From a virus: a stretch of DNA of 64,000 bases. The notes beneath the pieces were generated by a model. It was given only the letters and a program-made list of their open reading frames with translations, ran no database searches and was not told the origin of the DNA. This document shows, one piece after another, positions 9,786 through 63,652 of the stretch (positions are counted from its first letter, which is position 1; every line of letters begins with the position of its first letter). The DNA is taken from IMG/VR virus record IMGVR_UViG_3300037294_000399, positions 1-64,000 of that record, one strand, 5' to 3'. The position numbers and the translations under genes were made by a program.

Positions 9786-11093
9786 ATGATAGTAAAAGAA
9801 AATGATTTAAGATACGCTAAACTTATTCATGTATCTGTAGATAATGGATTAACTGACAACAGTAATAAAGTTTACGTTATGGAAGAACTTTCTGATGGTA
9901 GAATCAAATGTGAATATGGTCGTGTTGGTAAAAACATGACGACAGTTTATAAAAGCAGTCGTGAATGGGATAAAATTGTTAGGGAAAAAACTTCTAACAA
10001 AAAAGGTTACACGGATGTGACTGATTTATTAGCTGAACCAGTTGTTGATGATTCTAGACCAGTCAATAACAAAGTTGACAGTATCAAAGATGATATTGTT
10101 AGAAAACTAGTTGATGAGTTGATGTCTTTTGCTAACAAATCTATCCAAAGAAACTATAAGGTAACCCAAGAAGCTGTGTCTGAACAACAAGTAAATGTTG
10201 CTCAAGATGTTATCAATGCTATTAGTGGTTTATTGATATTAGGTGTTGATAAAAAACATGTTAATGATATGTTACTTAAACTATATACAATTATCCCTAG
10301 AAGAATGGATAATGTTAAGAGTCATTTAATTAACGATGTAAATACAGATTCTGATTTAGAAACAGCACAAAGATTAATTGGTGAAGAACAAAGTACTTTA
10401 GACACAATGGCTGGACAGGTTGAATTGATTCAACAACAAAAAGAAGCAACTAAAAAAGCGGCAGAAGCTGAAGCTAATGGTGTTGAAGAAGAAGTAGAAG
10501 AAGTAACTATCCTTGACCAAATGGGTTTAAGTATTGAAGTTGAAAATGATGAAGAAACGTTAGCACTTATTAAAAAACTAATGGGTTCAAATGTAAACCA
10601 AATGAAAAAAGTTTACAAGGTTGTTAATACCAAGACACAAGTTAAATTCGACAAGAACTTAGATAAATCAAGGGTTAAAAAGAAACGTCTTTACTGGCAT
10701 GGTTCTAGAAATGAGAACTGGTTCAATATTTTACAAACTGGTTTGCTTATTAGACCTTCTGGTGCGGTTCATACGGGGTCCATGTTTGGTGATGGCGTAT
10801 ATTTTTCAAACAAATCCCAGAAATCAATAGGTTACACGTCCTTGAGAGGAAGCTACTGGACTAAGGGTGGGGACGATAAAGCATATCTTGCTTTATTTGA
10901 CGTACACATTGGTAACCAGAAACACATAACAAACCATACATCTAGTTGTTATTCATTATCCCAAAAAGTCATGGATAAGGAAGGATTCGATAGCGTCTAC
11001 GCACACGGTGGAGCCGATTTACGTAATGATGAGTTCATTGTTTATAAACCAGAGCAATGTACTGTATCACATTTAATAGAAATTGGGAATTAA
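9786..11093 (+). CDS. PARP-like ADP-ribosyltransferase (WGR, regulatory and catalytic domains)
   Basis: YGRVG (WGR), LYTIIPR regulatory motif, H-Y-E triad: YWHGS, GSMFGDGVYF, NDEFIVY. Confidence 0.9.
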   Translation: MIVKENDLRYAKLIHVSVDNGLTDNSNKVYVMEELSDGRIKCEYGRVGKNMTTVYKSSREWDKIVREKTSNKKGYTDVTDLLAEPVVDDSRPVNNKVDSIKDDIVRKLVDELMSFANKSIQRNYKVTQEAVSEQQVNVAQDVINAISGLLILGVDKKHVNDMLLKLYTIIPRRMDNVKSHLINDVNTDSDLETAQRLIGEEQSTLDTMAGQVELIQQQKEATKKAAEAEANGVEEEVEEVTILDQMGLSIEVENDEETLALIKKLMGSNVNQMKKVYKVVNTKTQVKFDKNLDKSRVKKKRLYWHGSRNENWFNILQTGLLIRPSGAVHTGSMFGDGVYFSNKSQKSIGYTSLRGSYWTKGGDDKAYLALFDVHIGNQKHITNHTSSCYSLSQKVMDKEGFDSVYAHGGADLRNDEFIVYKPEQCTVSHLIEIGN

Positions 11094-14619: not shown

Positions 14620-15813
14620 ATGAAACAAATAACACACGAATACTTAGTAGAAAATGGTTTAATACTTTTTGAAACCATCGTTGGTTCACAAGCATACGGT
14701 ACACAAACTCCAACATCAGACATCGATAAAAAATTTGTCTATATATTACCTATGGATTCAATTTTAGGTACTGGTTATGTTGAACAAATAAATGTAGATA
14801 AAGATTACGTTGGTTGGGAGATTAGACGTTTCCTAGAACTTATGGGTTCAAACAATCCAACGGTTCTTGAACTTCTTAATAGCCCAGAAGATTGTATTGT
14901 ATCAAAACATGAGCTGTTTGACCTTATTCTTGCACACAAAGAAGATTTTATTACAAAAATTTGTAAAGATTCATTCGGTGGGTATGCAAGACAACAAATC
15001 AAGAAAGCCAAAGGATTGAATAAAAAACAAAACTGGGAAAAAGATAAAGTAACTCGAAAAGATTTACTAGATTTTTGTTACATTGTTGATGGTGAAAAAA
15101 CTATCCCATGGAAATCTTGGAATTGTGATAAATATGATGAAAAGTATATTGGTGCTGTTAATCTACCTAACGCTAGAGATGTATATGCATTATTTTATGA
15201 TAGTGTTGCAGAAATGTTACAGTCTGAAAAATATGCTGAAGATTTAAGACAAGTTTATAAAGAAACCCTTAAAAAAGCTGGTAAACCTATGGGTCACCGT
15301 TATAAAGGGTTGGTTAAAACAGGTGAAGGAGCAAACGCTGCTGAATCAAATCAATTACGTCTTTCATCAATACCAAAAGGTGAAAAAAGTATCTGTAATT
15401 TAGTTTACAATAAAGATGCTTACACCACACATTGTAAAGACTACAAAGAGTATCAAGAATGGTTAGAAAACCGTAACGAAACTCGTTATGTTGAAACACA
15501 GGAACATGGACAACGAATTGATGGTAAAAATATGATGCATTGTATTAGACTTATTCGTATGGCTCAAGAAATTGGTAGAGGGGAAGGCGTTCAAGTTCGT
15601 AGACCAGATGCTGAAGAACTATTATCGATTAGACGTGGTGAAGTTGATTTAGAACAACTTATTGATATGGCTGACAAAGCTATTGAAGAAATGGACTCAA
15701 TCTTTGATAATTCAGATTTACCAAGCAAACTTAATAGTGGCATCATCGATGCTCTGTTGGTAAATATTAGAAGAGACTTTTATAACTTGCCAATATCGGC
15801 AACTAATATTTAA
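14620..15813 (+). CDS. Pol-beta-superfamily nucleotidyltransferase (YcgL/Nuc-transf type)
   Basis: GSQAYG...SDID, NPTVLELL, KNMMHCIRL. Confidence 0.8.
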   Translation: MKQITHEYLVENGLILFETIVGSQAYGTQTPTSDIDKKFVYILPMDSILGTGYVEQINVDKDYVGWEIRRFLELMGSNNPTVLELLNSPEDCIVSKHELFDLILAHKEDFITKICKDSFGGYARQQIKKAKGLNKKQNWEKDKVTRKDLLDFCYIVDGEKTIPWKSWNCDKYDEKYIGAVNLPNARDVYALFYDSVAEMLQSEKYAEDLRQVYKETLKKAGKPMGHRYKGLVKTGEGANAAESNQLRLSSIPKGEKSICNLVYNKDAYTTHCKDYKEYQEWLENRNETRYVETQEHGQRIDGKNMMHCIRLIRMAQEIGRGEGVQVRRPDAEELLSIRRGEVDLEQLIDMADKAIEEMDSIFDNSDLPSKLNSGIIDALLVNIRRDFYNLPISATNI

Positions 15814-16495: not shown

Positions 16496-17233
16496 TTAAA
16501 GCATAGAAATTGCTTTGTTGATATCCTTTAACATTTGAATACAACGATTAGTCAAATAATCAGTATTTTCATCATTCATATAAGCAGTAACGTTTATTGG
16601 TTTATTTGTAAATCTAATAAATTCGTTTTCATGTGACATCCTAGAAAGAACACTAAAATATTCGGATTTAAAAATAAATTCATCTGGGTTGGTGTTGTAG
16701 GCCAAAATAAAAGGAAGTCTTAAATCTTCACGTATAACATCATTTAATAATTTCATCAATCCATCTTCAGTGTCAATATAGTCAATTTTGGCAACAATTT
16801 CGTAAAAACTTTCATAACTACCAAAATTAGCTGCTGACTCATAAGCCATAGACCAACTTTGAACTAAACTATTCGCTTTATAAACATAACGATTACCCTT
16901 TTCAAGTTCAATGGCTTGCTTGTTTTTGATAAAATAAGACATTGGAATCATTGTTCCTCTATAAGTTGTAATATTTTCTGGGACCAATATGTCTGGGTAT
17001 TGATTCATACAACCTTTTAGGTTTGATAAAGCAGAAATAAATTCCTGTGTAGTTTCTTCACCATACATATTATCGGTAAAATCTTTTATTTGCTCTATAT
17101 AATCATTTTCAGTTGGCGTATTACGCTCAGCTCCACCAAATTGGTCACCAAATAATTCATGACCGAAATTCTTAACACAAGATGTTACTTCGTTTTCATT
17201 TACGATGGATTCATATAACTTATAGATTTTCAT
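16496..17233 (-). CDS. Possible R-S-E class ADP-ribosyltransferase
   Basis: TYRG ... QSWS ... ENE in the expected order. Confidence 0.45.
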   Translation of the reverse strand: MKIYKLYESIVNENEVTSCVKNFGHELFGDQFGGAERNTPTENDYIEQIKDFTDNMYGEETTQEFISALSNLKGCMNQYPDILVPENITTYRGTMIPMSYFIKNKQAIELEKGNRYVYKANSLVQSWSMAYESAANFGSYESFYEIVAKIDYIDTEDGLMKLLNDVIREDLRLPFILAYNTNPDEFIFKSEYFSVLSRMSHENEFIRFTNKPINVTAYMNDENTDYLTNRCIQMLKDINKAISML

Positions 17234-17302
17234 AGTGTTACAGTTTATTTACTATAAATATCGAAAAAACTTGTAAAAAAACTTGACAAATCAAAATAAA
17301 TG

Positions 17303-17342
17303 TAGTATCTTTGTGTAACTTTTAGAAATAGAGGTATATTTA
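17303..17342 (+). promoter_or_regulatory. tRNA-operon promoter cassette, copy 1
   Basis: tagtatctttgtgtaacttttagaaatagaggtatattta; TAnnTTTG plus TATTTAT motif; near-identical at 18284 and 31824. Confidence 0.8.
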
Positions 17343-17364
17343 TAGACAAATAAAAACAACAACA

Positions 17365-17442
17365 ATGAAAACTTTTAACAACGCAGTAGTCCTTTTAGTC
17401 TTATGTTTACTAGTAGTAGACAGGATGGGTTATGCATGTTAA
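17365..17442 (+). CDS. Attenuator leader peptide 1 (Val/Leu/Cys): MKTFNNAVVLLVLCLLVVDRMGYAC
   Basis: 11 consecutive V/L/C codons upstream of a terminator and Cys/Leu/Val/Leu tRNAs. Confidence 0.85.
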   Translation: MKTFNNAVVLLVLCLLVVDRMGYAC

Positions 17443-17469
17443 TTAAGTAGTCAAATACGATAACAACTG

Positions 17470-17500
17470 AAACCCATCTAAGCAATTAGGTGGGTTTTTT
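17470..17500 (+). terminator. Attenuator terminator 1
   Basis: aacccatctaa-GCAA-ttaggtgggtt + T run; alternative pairing with gatgggtt 17424-17431. Confidence 0.85.
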
Positions 17501-17507
17501 GCATTAT

Positions 17508-17582
17508 GCACGTGTGGTCGAGTGGTCAAAGGCAACGGATTGCAAATCCGTAAAACCGCTGGTTCGAATCCAGCCACGTGTT
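17508..17582 (+). tRNA. tRNA-Cys(GCA)
   Basis: Cloverleaf; anticodon arm acgga-ttGCAaa-tccgt. Confidence 0.92.
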
Positions 17583-17598
17583 CAAAATAGAAAATAAG

Positions 17599-17883
17599 AT
17601 GGATACAAATGAAGTAAAAAAAGACTTATATAAGTCAAAGAACATGGCTAAATTTAGTCATTATGTAAGTGGGAATTGATACTACACAGTTGAGTTAGCT
17701 ATCGGAACATATCAATTCCCGATATTAACGGTAGAAGAATCAGAATTATATGATTCTGAAGGTAGTGTTAAATTATCCTCAGATTTAGGAACAACAACCT
17801 TTGAGGTAGAAATGAAAGGGTTAGACCTTAACAGATGGATAACAAAAGCCATAGAAAATGAAACATTTATAAAGATAGGGTAA
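17599..17883 (+). pseudogene. Hypothetical gene with internal TGA at 17677
   Basis: Open frame on both sides of a single stop. Confidence 0.55.
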
Positions 17884-17895
17884 AACCTATCATAA

Positions 17896-17979
17896 GCGGA
17901 TATGGGGGAATTGGTAGACCCGCTGGTCTTAGAAACCAGTGCTGAAATAAGCGTGCGAGTTCGAGTCTCGCTATCCGTA
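17896..17979 (+). tRNA. tRNA-Leu(TAG)
   Basis: ctggt-ctTAGaa-accag, long variable arm. Confidence 0.93.
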
Positions 17980-17985
17980 CAACAT

Positions 17986-18063
17986 GCATCTGTAACTCAG
18001 TTGGTTTAGAGTGCTTCCTTTACACGGAAGAAGTCGGGGGTTCGAGTCCCTCCAGATGCACCA
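17986..18063 (+). tRNA. tRNA-Val(TAC)
   Basis: cttcc-ttTACac-ggaag, encoded CCA. Confidence 0.95.
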
Positions 18064-18064
18064 A

Positions 18065-18145
18065 AAGATAGTTACTGCAAACAAAAAGGTTAACAATTTA
18101 TTCGCAAAATAAATCTAAGTGGTTCAATCCCACAAAACTATCTTG
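18065..18145 (+). ncRNA. tRNA-fragment element (anticodon-like GCA arm plus T-arm in a closing stem)
   Basis: aagatagtt/aactatctt stem; atttat-tcGCAaa-ataaat; gtgg-ttcaatc-ccac. Confidence 0.55.
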
Positions 18146-18150
18146 AATTT

Positions 18151-18235
18151 GGCCGAGTGGTGGAACGGTATACACACTAGACTTAAAATCTAGCGGTCCG
18201 AAAGGGCCTTGCGGGTTCGAATCCCGCCTCGGCTA
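18151..18235 (+). tRNA. tRNA-Leu(TAA)
   Basis: ctaga-ctTAAaa-tctag, long variable arm. Confidence 0.93.
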
Positions 18236-18283
18236 CAATAAAATAAAAAAAACACAAAAAGACTTGCTTTTTTAAAATAAATG

Positions 18284-18323
18284 TAGTACCTTTGTGTAAC
18301 TTTTAGAAATAAGAGTATATTTA
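18284..18323 (+). promoter_or_regulatory. tRNA-operon promoter cassette, copy 2
   Basis: tagtacctttgtgtaacttttagaaataagagtatattta. Confidence 0.8.
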
Positions 18324-18364
18324 TTAAACAACAAAGGGGAAACCCACATTAAAAAATAGAAACA

Positions 18365-18454
18365 ATGAAAAAAAATAACAACATATTTGATTTTGCATTT
18401 TTTGCTGCCGAGGCTGATGAAAGCTTGGGAAGGTCATCTATTGTCATAAGTTAA
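18365..18454 (+). CDS. Attenuator leader peptide 2 (Phe/Asp/Ala/Glu): MKKNNNIFDFAFFAAEADESLGRSSIVIS
   Basis: 12 consecutive F/D/A/E codons upstream of a terminator and Phe/Glu/Asp/Ala tRNAs. Confidence 0.85.
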   Translation: MKKNNNIFDFAFFAAEADESLGRSSIVIS

Positions 18455-18477
18455 TGTAAATCATTAAACGAATCGAT

Positions 18478-18512
18478 AAAAGCTCTGACCTAAAAATCAG
18501 AGCTTTTTTTTT
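18478..18512 (+). terminator. Attenuator terminator 2
   Basis: aaaagctctga...tcagagctttt + T run; alternative pairing aggtca 18431-18436 with tgacct 18486-18491. Confidence 0.8.
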
Positions 18513-18596
18513 GTTTAAAAAATAAATAAAAAAAAAATGTAAAAAGTTTGGATGTTTAAAAAATATTTCATACCTTTGCAGAGTCAAAATAGACAA

Positions 18597-18623
18597 GGTA
18601 CCTTAGCTCAGTTGGTAGAGCAA
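18597..18623 (+). pseudogene. 5' half of interrupted tRNA-Phe
   Basis: ggtaccttagctcagttggtagagcaa, matching the intact tRNA-Phe at 21416. Confidence 0.8.
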
Positions 18624-18635
18624 GTTTAAAATAAT

Positions 18636-18709
18636 GGACTTCTGGTGTAAATGGTGTGTCATGCTAGTCTGAAGAACTAGAGGTTTCGGTTCGAGTCCGA
18701 GGGAGTCCA
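18636..18709 (+). tRNA. tRNA-Phe(GAA), divergent copy carried by the insertion
   Basis: ctagt-ctGAAga-actag; acceptor ggacttc/ggagtcc. Confidence 0.8.
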
Positions 18710-18789
18710 CAGATAACTTTTTGTAGAACATAATACAAAGTTTTTAGAGCTTTTAGATATAATTAGATATTTATATAAAAACGTAAATT

Positions 18790-19281
18790 ATGTTATTAGA
18801 AGAATTAGTAAAAAAGGGGTTGAATAATACTGAAATAGGTGAAATTTTAGGTATACATAGAACAACAGTTGCAAAGCAAATAAAAAAAGCTGGCATTGAA
18901 CGTGAAATATCAGATACTTGTGTTATTTGTAAAAGTAAAACAAAATCAACTAGAAAAAGATGTGATAGTTGTAACACTAAAATTAGAAGATACAGGGCAA
19001 AAAAAGCGAGTGTTCAATATTTGGGCGGTAAATGTAAAAAATGTGGTTGGAGTGGAAATTTAGCTGGTTATGATTTTCACCATCTAGACCCAGAAAAAAA
19101 AGATTTTAAACCAAGTGCTAATGAATTAGCAAATAAATCTTGGATTAAAGTAAAAGAGGAATTAGATAAATGTGAATTATTATGTGCAATATGTCATAGA
19201 TTAGAACATAATGATTATGAAAATAAAATATTTTTAAAAATAGCTGATTCAGAAAGTGATGATTTAATTTTTAAAAATTAA
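18790..19281 (+). CDS. HNH endonuclease with N-terminal HTH
   Basis: LGGKCKKCG...DFHHLDP...KCELLCAICH. Confidence 0.88.
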   Translation: MLLEELVKKGLNNTEIGEILGIHRTTVAKQIKKAGIEREISDTCVICKSKTKSTRKRCDSCNTKIRRYRAKKASVQYLGGKCKKCGWSGNLAGYDFHHLDPEKKDFKPSANELANKSWIKVKEELDKCELLCAICHRLEHNDYENKIFLKIADSESDDLIFKN

Positions 19282-19293
19282 AACAAGATGCGG

Positions 19294-19323
19294 GTGTCAC
19301 TGGTTCGAATCCAGTAGGTACCA
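19294..19323 (+). pseudogene. 3' half of interrupted tRNA-Phe
   Basis: gtgtcactggttcgaatccagtaggtacca; aggtacc pairs with ggtacct at 18597. Confidence 0.8.
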
Positions 19324-19407
19324 CAAAAGACAAATAGACCACACCTAGGGTTAGTGATTTAATTAAAGGGTCTCATTCAGTATACAAGTCTGAAATTTGT
19401 CTTTCAT

Positions 19408-31358: not shown

Positions 31359-31815
31359 ATCTTTTGATGACCTATTCAACCAATTTTTTGGTGGTAAAAG
31401 AAATAAAAAAAACTCTGATGATAAACCAACTGATTTTAATAAAGCCAAAAATGAGAATATCAAAAAAATGATTGATATGATATCTAATATGGAAGAAGTT
31501 ACTGGTTCACATATTGCTGGTCAGATTGATGATGGATTAGGTGAACCAAACCAAGTTGAATATTATGAAGAAGATGGAATGTATTTTGAAAAGAAAACAT
31601 GGAAAGTATTTGGTGGTGAAATGGTAAAAGTAATCATGTCAGATGAACCATTTAACGAATATGCGGAAGAAAATAAAGAATCTCAGTTAACATTACAAGA
31701 ACAATTAGAGGATGCTGTAAAAAATGAAAACTATGAAATGGCAGCAAAATTAATGGGTTTAATAAAAAAAGAAGAAAAAAAACAAAAAAAAATACAAAAA
31801 GACTTGCTTTTATAA
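31351..31815 (+). CDS. UVR (UvrB/C motif) domain protein
   Basis: LEDAVKNENYEMAAKL. Confidence 0.7.
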   Translation: MDKSFDDLFNQFFGGKRNKKNSDDKPTDFNKAKNENIKKMIDMISNMEEVTGSHIAGQIDDGLGEPNQVEYYEEDGMYFEKKTWKVFGGEMVKVIMSDEPFNEYAEENKESQLTLQEQLEDAVKNENYEMAAKLMGLIKKEEKKQKKIQKDLLL

Positions 31816-31823
31816 AATAAAAG

Positions 31824-31863
31824 TAGTACCTTTGTGTAACTTTTAGAAATAGAGGTATATTTA
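31824..31863 (+). promoter_or_regulatory. tRNA-operon promoter cassette, copy 3
   Basis: tagtacctttgtgtaacttttagaaatagaggtatattta. Confidence 0.8.
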
Positions 31864-31897
31864 TTAGAAAAGAGGTAAAACTCACAAACAAAAAATT

Positions 31898-32703: not shown

Positions 32704-32777
32704 GCTCTGTACGCACGAAAGGTGGTGCACTGGATTTGTAACCCAGAATAGAATCGGTTCGATTCCGATACAGAGCT
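32704..32777 (+). tRNA. tRNA-Thr(TGT)
   Basis: ctgga-ttTGTaa-cccag; acceptor gctctgt/acagagc. Confidence 0.85.
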
Positions 32778-32973: not shown

Positions 32974-33036
32974 GCGAGAGTAGCTCAGTGGTAGAGCATC
33001 TGGTTACCAACTAGAGGGTCGTTGGTTCGAACCCCA
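32974..33036 (+). pseudogene. Truncated tRNA-Gly(ACC)
   Basis: gcgagag start, tctgg-ttACCaa-ctaga, 3' acceptor strand missing. Confidence 0.6.
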
Positions 33037-33188
33037 CAAATGTATATTACAATATACAAAAAGATATAAAAACAGTAAAATGTATATTATAATATACAAA
33101 ACAAAATGATTATGAAAACAACAAAATTGGTATAATAGAACATTATAAATACCTTCATTGGTTCAAATCCAATCGGGGGTACTAAAAA

Positions 33189-43299: not shown

Positions 43300-44418
43300 T
43301 CAGTAGTTGGAACTAAAAATGTTTTGTTCGTTATCGAATCTTTAGATGAGAACTGCGCATGGTTAACCAATTTTTTAGAAACTATCTTGTTGCAAGTATG
43401 GTATCCAATTACGGTTGCTACACTTTCAAGAGAAGTTCGTAAAATCGTAGATGCTAGTTTTCAAAAAAACACATCATATGATACTGGGTTAAGAGAGTTT
43501 CTGGTTGATTACGTGTTGAATGACTTCGGTTTCCGTGGTGTATCGTCTGTACAATCAGCTGGTATTGGTGGGTCTGCTCACTTGGTAAACTTTAGAGGTT
43601 CTGATACAATCATGGCATCTAAATACATCAGAGATTACTACAATACAGAAACAGTTTATGGGTTATCTATCCCAGCAACTGAACACTCTATCATGACACT
43701 TAAAGGTGAAGAAGGTGAATTGGAAATGATGAAACGAGTACTTACAACATTCCCTACTGGGTTAGTTGCGTGTGTATCTGATTCATACAATATCTTTCGT
43801 GCATGTTCTGAGTATTGGGGAACTGAATTGAGAGACTTAGTACTATCTCGCCCATCAGAACCAGGAAATCAACTAGTTATCCGTCCAGATTCTGGTGACG
43901 TGTTAATGACATTGAAAGAAATTTTCACTATATTATTCGACAAATTCGGTTACACAGTAAACGATAAGGGTTATAAAGTGTTACCACCACAAGTTCGTGT
44001 GATTCAAGGTGATGGTGTTAATCTAGATTCAATTAAAGAAATCTACGCATTGTTAGAGGAAGAAAAAATATCACCAGAAAACTTAGCTTTAGGTATGGGT
44101 GGTAAATTATTACAAGCAGTGGACCGAGACACATGTGCATTTGCTACCAAAGCTTGTACAGCCGTAGTTGACGGTGTTGAAGTTGAAGTACAGAAAAATC
44201 CTACCGAAATGGACGAGAATGGGAATTTAACAAAAAGTTTCAAAAAGTCTAAAAAGGGTAGATTGAAGTTGGTAAAAACTGATAACGGTTATATTACTTT
44301 AACTTCTAAAGATGAAGGATTCGAAGAAGCTAAGGATGAACTCGTAGAGGTTTTCCGCATGGGAGATATTCTTAAAGAGTGGTCTTTTGAGGAAATCCGT
44401 GAGAGAGCCAAAATTTAA
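43300..44418 (+). CDS. nadV: Nicotinamide phosphoribosyltransferase, exon 2
   Basis: DFGFRG, PATEHS, VSDSY, IRPDSG, QGDG, KKSKKG. Confidence 0.92.
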   Translation, partial: SVVGTKNVLFVIESLDENCAWLTNFLETILLQVWYPITVATLSREVRKIVDASFQKNTSYDTGLREFLVDYVLNDFGFRGVSSVQSAGIGGSAHLVNFRGSDTIMASKYIRDYYNTETVYGLSIPATEHSIMTLKGEEGELEMMKRVLTTFPTGLVACVSDSYNIFRACSEYWGTELRDLVLSRPSEPGNQLVIRPDSGDVLMTLKEIFTILFDKFGYTVNDKGYKVLPPQVRVIQGDGVNLDSIKEIYALLEEEKISPENLALGMGGKLLQAVDRDTCAFATKACTAVVDGVEVEVQKNPTEMDENGNLTKSFKKSKKGRLKLVKTDNGYITLTSKDEGFEEAKDELVEVFRMGDILKEWSFEEIRERAKI

Positions 44419-61669: not shown

Positions 61670-63652
61670 ATGATTAAAATAAACGATATATTAGAAGGAA
61701 GACTAAGCATGAACGCTAGTGGGTCCGCATATTTGGTGAGTGAGAATTTACCAAAAGACATTTATGTCCATAAAACCAACACTAACCATGCGTTGCATTT
61801 GGATAAGGTAAAGATTGAAGTAATGGCTGGTCAAGGTCGTACACTTGAGGGTAAAGTAATTGAGGTGGTTGAACGCTTTAGAACTGAGTTTGTTGGTGTA
61901 ATCCAAATAAACCCTAAATTTGCTTTCTTTGTTCCAGATAGCAACAAACTACCTATTGACTTTTTTATTCCATTAAACAAGACAATGGGTGCTACAGAAG
62001 GCCAAAAAGTAATTGCAAGTATAACTGAATGGAAAGAAGGTGCTAAAAACCCTAACGGTGAAGTTATAAGAATTATAGGTAATGCTGGTGAACACGAAAC
62101 TGAGATACATAGTATTTTAGAAGAATATGGTTTACCTTACGATTTTGAAACAGATGTAATCATGGAGGCCAATTTAATTTCCACAGAAATCACACAAGAA
62201 GAAATTGATAAACGTAGAGATATGCGTGATATACTTACCTTCACAATTGACCCAGCTGACGCCAAAGACTTTGACGATGCGTTGAGTGTGGAATGGGTTG
62301 ACGGTGAGTTGTATGTTGGTGTTCATATTGCCGATGTATCACATTACTTACGTCCAGATACCGAATTGGATAAAGAAGCTTTTGCCAGAGGTACAAGTGT
62401 TTACTTAGTTGATAGATGTGTCCCTATGCTTCCAGAGAACTTATCTAACGGTTTGTGTTCGTTAAGACCTAACGAAGATAAATTATGTTTTTCTGCTATT
62501 TTTAAGTTAGACCACAATGGTCATGTGTTAGAAGAATGGTTTGGTAGAACCGTAATTAATTCTGACCACAGATTTACCTACGAAGAAGCACAAGCTATCA
62601 TTGAATTAGATAAGCTACCTAAAGACGATGTTGAGGGTAGAACCAAAATACTATTGGAAGACACTGGTTTAAGGTTATTAGGTTGGGACCCAGCTAGAAA
62701 ACTAGCCGATGCTGTATTGGCGTTGAACAAGATAGCTAAAAAGATGCGTAAAGTTCGTTTGATAAAAGGTTCTTTATCATTTGATAAACAAGAGGTCAAA
62801 TTCAAATTGGATGAGAATAGTAAACCAACTGGGATTATATTCAAGGTTGCCAAAGACTCAAACAAACTTATTGAAGAATACATGTTGTTAGCGAATAAAC
62901 ACGTAGCTCAGTTCATCAACACGAAAGGTTTACCCAACGTGAATAGAGCACACGATAAACCTAACGAAGAAAAGTTAGCAGCGTTAAAAGACTTTATTGT
63001 TCAGTTTGGTTACGATATTAAAATCGATACACCAGAAGAAACTACAAAAACACTTAACAAATTGTTAACGGATGTGCGTGGTACTGCTGAAGAAGATATG
63101 GTTAATAACTTAGTTGTTAGGACAATGCAAAAAGCAAACTATACGACAAAAAACATTGGTCACTATGGTTTAGGTTTTGCTAACTATTCACACTTTACTA
63201 GTCCAATCAGACGTTACAGTGATATATTAGTTCATAGATTGTTAGCTTTGTATTTGGATGAGAACAAGAAAACAACACCTAAGTTAGAGAAGTTAGAAAC
63301 TAGATGTATTCATTTATCTGAAAGAGAAAAGAAAGCACAGAAAGCTGAACGTGACTCAATCAAATTCATGCAATGTATTTACATGAGTGAACACATAGGT
63401 AAAGTATTTGAAGGTATCGTTACATCAGTTGCTGAGTATGGTGTTTTCGTTGAAATACTTGAGAACAAATGCGAAGGACTTATTAAGTTATCTGAAATTT
63501 CTGGTGATACATATCAAGTTGATATGAGTAACTATTGTGTTAAAGGGTATAACACAGGTGATAAGATTCGTTTGGGTGATATGGTTCACGTTGTAGTTTC
63601 TAGTGTAGATATCGATAAAAAGAATATTAATTTAACAATGATTCGATTATAG
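61670..63652 (+). CDS. rnr: Ribonuclease R
   Basis: TIDPADAKDFDDA, HIADVS, YSHFTSPIRRY, C-terminal S1. Confidence 0.95.
   Translation: MIKINDILEGRLSMNASGSAYLVSENLPKDIYVHKTNTNHALHLDKVKIEVMAGQGRTLEGKVIEVVERFRTEFVGVIQINPKFAFFVPDSNKLPIDFFIPLNKTMGATEGQKVIASITEWKEGAKNPNGEVIRIIGNAGEHETEIHSILEEYGLPYDFETDVIMEANLISTEITQEEIDKRRDMRDILTFTIDPADAKDFDDALSVEWVDGELYVGVHIADVSHYLRPDTELDKEAFARGTSVYLVDRCVPMLPENLSNGLCSLRPNEDKLCFSAIFKLDHNGHVLEEWFGRTVINSDHRFTYEEAQAIIELDKLPKDDVEGRTKILLEDTGLRLLGWDPARKLADAVLALNKIAKKMRKVRLIKGSLSFDKQEVKFKLDENSKPTGIIFKVAKDSNKLIEEYMLLANKHVAQFINTKGLPNVNRAHDKPNEEKLAALKDFIVQFGYDIKIDTPEETTKTLNKLLTDVRGTAEEDMVNNLVVRTMQKANYTTKNIGHYGLGFANYSHFTSPIRRYSDILVHRLLALYLDENKKTTPKLEKLETRCIHLSEREKKAQKAERDSIKFMQCIYMSEHIGKVFEGIVTSVAEYGVFVEILENKCEGLIKLSEISGDTYQVDMSNYCVKGYNTGDKIRLGDMVHVVVSSVDIDKKNINLTMIRL

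Follow-up and report, generated by a model that had tools for sequence, protein, structure and literature searches.

We describe here a leader region and the transfer RNA (tRNA) operon behind it in a stretch of 64,000 nucleotides (nt) of viral DNA, hereafter the window, which corresponds to the first 64 kb of the 96-kb IMG/VR record IMGVR_UViG_3300037294_000399 (rated 27% complete), a fragment of a giant phage. The locus, centred on positions 17365–18235, contains a promoter, a 5' untranslated region (UTR) cassette, a short leader open reading frame (ORF), a hairpin followed by a U-run, and an operon with four tRNA genes, as listed in Table 1. An earlier note on this DNA had proposed a leader-peptide attenuator at this place, and the ORF, control codons, hairpin and tRNAs that it described are all present where it put them. 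Three further components were identified beyond its description: the 94-codon ORF and the tRNA-like element, both members of the operon, and a conserved protector helix between segments 1 and 2 that overlaps the control codons. The analysis suggests that the leader is probably a ribosome-mediated leader-peptide transcription attenuator, which gates the phage tRNA operon and exerts feedback on tRNA supply. The tRNAs would probably be made only when ribosomes decode the Val, Leu and Cys codons of the leader slowly.

Table 1. Features of the tRNA-Cys/Leu/Val operon and its leader (positions in the window)
Feature	Position	Strand	Basis or remark
Promoter, TTG, 21 nt, TAtcTTTG, Bacteroidota-type	17283..17313	+	Regular-expression scan; promoter families D1, D2, D5
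5' UTR cassette, common to three tRNA-operon leaders of the record	17310..17350	+	Repeat family D11
Leader ORF, 25 codons and TAA	17365..17442	+	ATG at 17365, stop TAA at 17440-17442
Control block, codons 8-18, VVLLVLCLLVV	17386..17418	+	Codon reading
Segment 1, GTCC, partner of the GGGT core of segment 2 when the RNA is untranslated	17389..17392	+	Minimum free energy (MFE) fold, RNAalifold
Segment 2, GGATGGGTT, antiterminator 5' strand, ends 8-9 nt ahead of the stop	17423..17431	+	
Segment 3, terminator 5' arm and antiterminator 3' strand	17470..17481	+	
Segment 4, terminator 3' arm and U-run (17495-17500)	17486..17500	+	
tRNA-Cys(GCA)	17508..17583	+	ARAGORN, Rfam
Small ORF, phrog_20427 (function unassigned), 94 codons	17599..17883	+	PHROGs
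tRNA-Leu(TAG)	17896..17980	+	ARAGORN, Rfam
tRNA-Val(TAC)	17986..18063	+	ARAGORN, Rfam
Odd tRNA-like element	18065-18145		Operon member between tRNA-Val(TAC) and tRNA-Leu(TAA)
tRNA-Leu(TAA), last gene of unit 1	18151..18236	+	ARAGORN, Rfam

The control block consists solely of Val, Leu and Cys codons (gta, gtc, ctt, tta, gtc, tta, tgt, tta, cta, gta, gta). As had been proposed, these codons lie in the boxes of the four downstream tRNAs, with both Leu boxes included, and the cognate codons comprise TGT (Cys-GCA), TTA three times (Leu-UAA), CTA (Leu-UAG) and GTA three times (Val-UAC). The commonest Val codon of the phage, GTT (54% of its Val codons), is missing from the block, yet GTA, which corresponds to the anticodon UAC, is used three times. 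With the amino-acid frequencies of the phage, the chance of an 11-residue run drawn from {C,L,V} is P ~2e-8, a value that is weak taken alone because hydrophobic runs are not independent draws.

This leader and its operon (unit 1) represent one of three paralogous cassettes in the record, which start at 17256, 18237 and 31777, and one of four in the family. Since the best-listed blastn matches against the phage collection span only ~3% of the query and fall mostly in tRNA genes, homologues were retrieved through the conserved UTR motif instead. The motif search returned 6 loci and its degenerate form 23 viral and 45 metagenome loci, and 57 distinct promoter-leader units were extracted by script from these 68 loci. 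The 57 units fall into four classes, each tied to one of four tRNA sets; the sets are disjoint and total 20 amino acids, and the leaders are divided likewise. In unit 1, with tRNAs for Cys, Leu and Val, the run of residues from the unit's own set spans 11 positions. Unit 2 (tRNAs for Phe, Glu, Asp and Ala) features the control block FDFAFFAAEADE with an own-set run of 12, while in unit 3 (Pro, Gln, Tyr, Thr, Gly and Lys) the run extends over 23 residues from K, T, Y, Q, P and G. Unit 4, observed in relatives, precedes tRNAs for His, Trp, Ser, Ile, Met, Asn and Arg, and carries the control block INIHMISISNWRRNSH with an own-set run of 16; its leader contains codons from both boxes of Ser and of Arg and both Ile codon types. 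The sister runs have P values between 2e-7 and 2e-11, and no run from the set of another unit exceeds 4 residues. One 233-kb contig encodes all four units on a single strand and covers the 20 amino acids. An exception to the match between leader and tRNAs was observed in L035, L038 and G003, where a tRNA-His(GTG) gene lies inside the unit-3 operon behind a leader without a His codon.

The correspondence was observed again, with a different partition, in LR745206.1, an unrelated deposited phage of 635 kb that is published but unannotated. Its tRNA arrays (L099–L102) are located at 342.3–344.3, 364.9–369.2, 387.7–390.3 and 406.7–408.1 kb, and upstream of each array a promoter, a short ORF, a terminator and an ORF-to-arm complement were identified. 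The amino acids are grouped as {N,R,L,V,I,T,M}, {P,D,Q}, {H,F,W,K,R,S} and {E,Y,G,...}, and the leaders follow this phage's own grouping. The tRNAs for Asn, Arg, Leu, Val, Ile, Thr and Met are preceded by a leader containing 20 consecutive residues of the set {N,R,L,V,I,T,M}, those for Pro, Asp and Gln by one with PQPQDQDP, those for His, Phe, Trp, Lys, Arg and Ser by one rich in H, K, F, S and W, and those for Glu, Tyr and Gly by one with SYESYYEEG. Leu and Val are grouped here with polar residues and the corresponding leader is not hydrophobic, which indicates that the hydrophobicity of the unit-1 peptide stems from its tRNA set and not from a membrane function.

These partitions bear on the possibility that the leaders form a general translational-stress switch, in which slowed ribosomes, whatever the cause (host shut-off, toxins or antibiotics, for example), would turn on every tRNA operon and the leader make-up would be a by-product, for example of an origin shared with neighbouring sequence. 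Such a switch would be in line with the one promoter and UTR common to all four cassettes, with the inability of the circuit to distinguish tRNA shortage from amino-acid shortage, and with the induction of an Anabaena tRNA array by general translational stress (PMC8421152). However, the division of the 20 amino acids among the leaders is exactly that of the operons, and the two agree again under the different split of LR745206.1. The match also extends down to isoacceptors, including both Leu, Ser and Arg boxes, a precision that would be needless for a general sensor. We consider this explanation very unlikely.

At the RNA level, the segments of Table 1 have the four-segment layout of the trp, his and ilv attenuators. 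The terminator comprises a 12-bp stem and six U (17470–17500), and its hairpin, spanning 17470–17497, has a free energy of -15.4 kcal/mol on its own. Segment 2 occupies nt 59–67 of the ORF, with the stop at nt 76. Within it, GATGGGTT (17424–17431, + strand) is exactly complementary to the terminator arm at 17471–17478, as the earlier note had pointed out; this 8-mer occurs three times on both strands of the 64-kb window. The full antiterminator pairs 17423–31 with 17471–79 in 9 bp, 8 of them Watson-Crick, and the duplex between the ORF and the terminator arm reaches -14.0 kcal/mol (p = 0.003, 300 shuffles). In the MFE fold of the untranslated RNA (z = -3.45 vs shuffles), the core of segment 2 pairs instead with GTCC within the control block, and the structure consists of an inner hairpin and an outer helix that links codons 4–6 to the last codon and the stop. 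When no ribosome is present, the full-length RNA shows this protector helix together with the terminator. A generic terminator scanner found the unit-2 terminator and missed the unit-1 hairpin, because the A:U base pairs of the latter use up part of the T-run; the promoter model of the scanner is that of sigma-70 and is not applicable to Bacteroidota.

The effect of a ribosome was explored with constrained folds, in which the nascent transcript was cut ahead of the terminator 3' arm and the ribosome was placed at chosen codons. Segment 2 pairs with the terminator arm at -17.0 kcal/mol when the A site is at codon 10 and at -16.2 kcal/mol when it is at codon 14. With the A site at codon 18, or with the ribosome on the stop, this pairing cannot form. 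The earlier claim that segment 2 would be covered by a ribosome at the stop codon and free during a stall in the control block thus holds for the stop and for stalls up to about codon 15, but not for an A site at codon 18, where the pairing is blocked.

Regarding transcription, no TAnnTTTG (-7) motif was detected by regular-expression scan in 17314–18240, and the promoter at 17283–17313 carries the sole motif upstream of the four tRNAs; any transcript that reaches them must therefore cross the hairpin and U-run. The tRNA-Cys gene begins at the 8th base past the last U, after a gap of 7 nt (gcattat), in agreement with the earlier description of a first tRNA directly behind the U-run with no promoter in between. 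Among homologous units, tRNA-Cys starts 2–10 nt past the U-run in 11 of 13, which leaves no room for a promoter ahead of tRNA-Cys in these units. The promoter of the next cassette begins at 18264, after tRNA-Leu(TAA).

Leader translation, ribosome stalling and regulated read-through are predicted from this arrangement as follows. Transcription would start from the 17283–17313 promoter, and a ribosome would translate the 25-codon leader. If the Val, Leu and Cys codons were decoded fast, the ribosome would reach the stop at 17440 and cover segment 2, the terminator would form, and the transcript would end 7 nt before tRNA-Cys. A stall in the control block (at about codons 5–15) would cover segment 1 (GTCC) and leave segment 2 free. 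The free segment would then pair with the terminator 5' arm before the 3' arm is made, allowing read-through into tRNA-Cys, the small ORF, tRNA-Leu(UAG), tRNA-Val(UAC) and tRNA-Leu(UAA). Without translation, segments 1 and 2 would pair and the terminator would form, a default state that would be off. Since the operon encodes the very tRNAs that decode the control block, the outcome would be a negative feedback on decoding capacity for those isoacceptors, and unit 1 would be one of four such circuits that jointly span the 20 amino acids.

Conservation was analysed in an alignment (A1) of 16 distinct unit-1 leaders from lake and estuary viromes. All 16 homologues retain the ATG start codon, the stop and the frame; both indels within the ORF are of 3 nt, and those in the spacer are of any length. 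For the terminator, 98.8% of cells are paired and four pairs are changed on both sides, a result that none of 500 shuffles matched, and the U-run is kept in 16/16. The antiterminator is paired in 95.1% of cells, compared with 29–57% when the partner is slid, and contains two covarying pairs. Its double changes sit at synonymous sites, Gly ggt/ggc and Val gtg/gta, and both terminator arms change to match; a G-C pair becomes A-U in L056, and C-G, U-A and U-G alternate at the third position of the Gly codon. RNAalifold recovers the protector helix of GTCC with GGGY, in which columns 25–28 pair with columns 66–69 (retained in 14–15 of the 16 sequences), as well as the inner hairpin, which is conserved with one A-U to G-C compensation. 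An alignment-free test for a duplex between the ORF and the terminator 5' arm gave p < 0.05 in 16/16 (300 shuffles), with the duplex always ~8 nt ahead of the stop. The C-terminal G-Y-x-C of the peptide is also conserved, and the conserved terminal TGT-TAA pairs with codons 4–6, which provides an RNA-level reason for its retention.

The same data bear on a second explanation, in which the hairpin and U-run would be a fixed leaky terminator or a processing or stability element, the ORF would encode a small hydrophobic functional peptide, and the tRNAs would be constitutive through partial read-through. The peptide does resemble a membrane segment and ends in the conserved G-Y-x-C, the terminator is favoured at equilibrium, and unit 2 lacks a detected antiterminator. 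Against this explanation, the ORF shows synonymous substitutions that go along with those of the terminator arm, the TGT-TAA conservation is explained at the RNA level by the pairing with codons 4–6, and the sister leaders are non-hydrophobic yet all mirror their tRNA sets. Moreover, an unregulated leaky terminator 7 nt ahead of a tRNA has no evident purpose, and we regard this explanation as very unlikely. A lipoprotein signal peptide (L-V-L-C) was also considered for the unit-1 peptide and set aside, as the residue at -1 is Leu, the mature part would be 12 residues long and hydrophobicity is not shared by the sister leaders. Finally, leader stalling that acts post-transcriptionally, by altering RNase P or RNase E cleavage or precursor stability and not termination, would suit a hairpin located 7 nt from the tRNA-Cys RNase P site in a phage that encodes RNA-metabolism enzymes (the RNase R-like protein and RlaP), but it is highly improbable given that the hairpin has the full intrinsic-terminator form of a G+C-rich stem and six U, that the competing helix targets precisely its 5' arm, and that the U-run kept in every homologue would be superfluous to processing.

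Several observations weigh against the attenuator reading. Viewed alone, the unit-1 peptide could pass for any common hydrophobic segment. Two GTC codons and one CTT codon in the control block lie outside the strict wobble of the operon tRNAs and would require four-box reading by U34, or host tRNAs; the conservation of GTC and CTT may instead reflect the 1:2 helix. Only a single Cys codon falls in the productive window; the second Cys is the last codon, where a stall would mask segment 2, and the last two Val codons are too near segment 2, according to the fold with the A site at codon 18. Even when a stalled ribosome is included, the full-length RNA at equilibrium favours the terminator in 15 of the 16 homologues, by 0.6–3 kcal/mol in most of them and by a larger margin in L006, L050 and L052 (fixed register). 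In folds with a ribosome mask, which the earlier note had put forward as a check, the nascent transcript forms the antiterminator at codons 10 and 14, and the full-length RNA at equilibrium keeps the terminator by a small margin. With the terminator favoured in this way, the switch would have to be kinetic; in the classical trp attenuator the terminator is likewise more stable at equilibrium and the choice is kinetic. Furthermore, additional tRNA cannot relieve a stall caused by amino-acid shortage, which makes the natural signal uncertain.

The sister cassettes add further points of this kind. In unit 2, the antiterminator was no better than shuffles (0/10), and a GGTCA/TGACC pairing of 5 bp reaches just 3 nt into the stem. 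Most genomes also contain, in unit 2, an additional promoter located after the terminator and before tRNA-Phe. The distance from the end of segment 2 to the stop is 29–30 nt in units 3 and 4, which would be too far for a ribosome at the stop to mask segment 2; here, a translating ribosome would be expected to melt two hairpins in the antiterminator loop, and timing relative to the polymerase may replace masking. For unit 1 itself, the ORF, codons, terminator, antiterminator and masking geometry were found as leader-peptide attenuation predicts at the sequence level, and the reading of the earlier note is supported on these counts.

Among known systems, the multivalent attenuators of enterobacteria (ilvGMEDA, ilvBN and thrL; also trpL, hisL, leuL and pheL) combine a short ORF, 1:2, 2:3 and 3:4 helices and a terminator, and a ribosome at the stop masks segment 2. 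Unit 1 resembles the ilv, thr and trp leaders in its ORF of regulatory codons, its alternative 1:2, 2:3 and 3:4 helices, its intrinsic terminator and its stop-codon masking. Unlike in those leaders, the regulated genes here are tRNAs and not biosynthetic enzymes, and as a consequence the sensed molecule would be the product itself. Unit 1 also differs from the enterobacterial leaders in belonging to a phage of Bacteroidota, in having no sequence relation to them, and in being part of four units that span 20 amino acids. None of the Rfam leader families (Thr, Leu/Phe, His and Trp) matched at the gathering score, with only Thr_leader scoring 22.5 bits (cut-off 55) on the unit-2 terminator, and over the window the only Rfam matches at the gathering score were tRNAs. 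To our knowledge, and as far as the literature can be searched, the described cases of leader-peptide attenuation are confined to genes for the synthesis, uptake or charging of amino acids. Attenuators of this family usually regulate biosynthesis, transport and synthetase genes, whereas the regulated genes here would be four tRNAs and one small ORF. This target class lies outside the known scope of the attenuator family, a fact that has no bearing on the mechanism.

Control of a translation component by leader-peptide attenuation is represented by pheST of E. coli, whose pheM leader is read out via charged tRNA. In contrast to unit 1, pheST encodes an aminoacyl-tRNA synthetase, a single amino acid is sensed and no tRNA gene is controlled. 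A Phe-rich leader of the E. coli tRNA-Phe gene pheV was considered as a precedent and rejected, as no such ORF is present in the 105 nt upstream of pheV in MG1655. T-box riboswitches similarly tie antitermination to tRNA charging and control translation-related genes. However, they bind uncharged tRNA directly via a specifier codon, free of translation, and the element described here is an ORF; no T-box was matched in Rfam in 17200–18700, even at E <= 1. For tRNA genes, promoters and processing are regarded as the points of control.

The nearest published case is the trn operon of Anabaena sp. PCC 7120, an accessory tRNA array that is silent and is switched on when translation is impaired (PMC8421152, PMC10272220). 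The two would have in common the conditional expression of an accessory tRNA array. Unlike unit 1, the Anabaena operon is controlled by a protein repressor, TrcR, at direct repeats in the promoter, and its response is global and not specific to an amino-acid set. The terms 'attenuat', 'leader peptide' and 'terminator' are absent from the text of PMC8421152. A full-text literature search on attenuation or leader peptides for tRNA operons or phage tRNAs returned nothing relevant, and no publication on trp-operon-style control of tRNA genes was found in the searchable literature.

Concerning the genomic context, the window has a G+C content of 31% and contains 38 Bacteroidota-type promoter-like sites (TTG, ~20 nt, TAnnTTTG) on the + strand, and the phage is one of Bacteroidota. 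In the vicinity of the tRNA region, PARP-like, RlaP, NAPRTase and RNase R-like genes were observed (window positions 9786–11093, 14620–15813, 43324–44418 and 61670–63652). RlaP is an RNA-repair nucleotidyltransferase, and the gene set fits a phage that manages RNA damage and nicotinamide adenine dinucleotide (NAD). The nearest deposited relatives of the RNase R-like protein, with ~50% identity, are encoded by uncultured 'huge phages' of 635–642 kb.

The UTR cassette belongs to repeat family D11, whose copies at 17256–17350, 18237–18331 and 31777–31871 are the only three exact ones in the 96-kb record. Within these copies, a segment of ~40 nt (17310–17350, 18291–18331 and 31831–31871) has the consensus TTTGTRTAACTTTT, 3 nt, AA, 6 nt, TATATTTA. 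It is kept in all four unit types across many phages, and its three exact copies in G000 and four matches in G003 are confined to tRNA-operon leaders. This segment may serve ribosome loading without Shine-Dalgarno pairing, or regulator binding. On the reverse strand of the 233-kb contig G003 (L096), a 36-codon ORF for a very basic peptide lies between the UTR cassette and the leader of unit 4.

The small ORF inside the operon is interrupted in this record by an in-frame TGA at 17677–17679, a position at which the near-identical relatives L003 and L062 have TTA (Leu), which marks the TGA as a point mutation or an assembly error, or the ORF of this record as a pseudogene. A homologue of the ORF was found at the matching place in the G001 lineage. 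In Pfam, no match was obtained for the ORF (in the 92-amino-acid form of the relatives) or for the gene upstream, and PHROGs gave only phrog_20427.

In the unit-2 cassette of the window, the second full promoter motif lies at 18548–18578; it is absent in L037 and L039, where tRNA-Phe sits 11–16 nt past the U-run. The tRNA-Phe gene of the window (18597–19327) is split by ~650 nt that include an ORF (18790–19281) with weak helix-turn-helix matches, and a second tRNA-Phe call was obtained at 18636–18710. In the near-identical relative L001 (679–752) tRNA-Phe is intact, which points to a recent and mobile insertion. In the unit-3 operon, two tRNAs (32704–32777 and 32981–33037) were found by Rfam and missed by ARAGORN. 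By eye, the former has an anticodon loop with TGT (Thr), which completes the six-amino-acid set of this unit.

A broader interpretation, which we put forward tentatively and regard as possible but doubtful, is that the four attenuators together perform a surveillance of individual isoacceptors, in which the host ribosomes would report, codon by codon, whether the host tRNA pool decodes each set. After anticodon-nuclease cleavage or host shut-off, only the replacement operon that is needed would then be switched on; with the same reservation, the units would constitute a self-tuning counter-defence covering 20 amino acids, and their class of cis-regulators would be widespread in giant Bacteroidota phages.

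In the attenuator proposed here, the sensor (the leader codons) and the product (the tRNAs that read them) would close a direct feedback loop, and a phage appears to operate four such loops that jointly take in the whole genetic code. If this holds, it would account for the means by which giant phages carrying dozens of tRNA genes keep from making tRNAs when these are not needed, and it would provide a testable link between phage tRNA arrays and host defences that target tRNAs. It would also offer compact, orthogonal sensors of codon decoding for Bacteroidota, and the tRNA content of an unannotated phage operon would become predictable from a 30-codon ORF.

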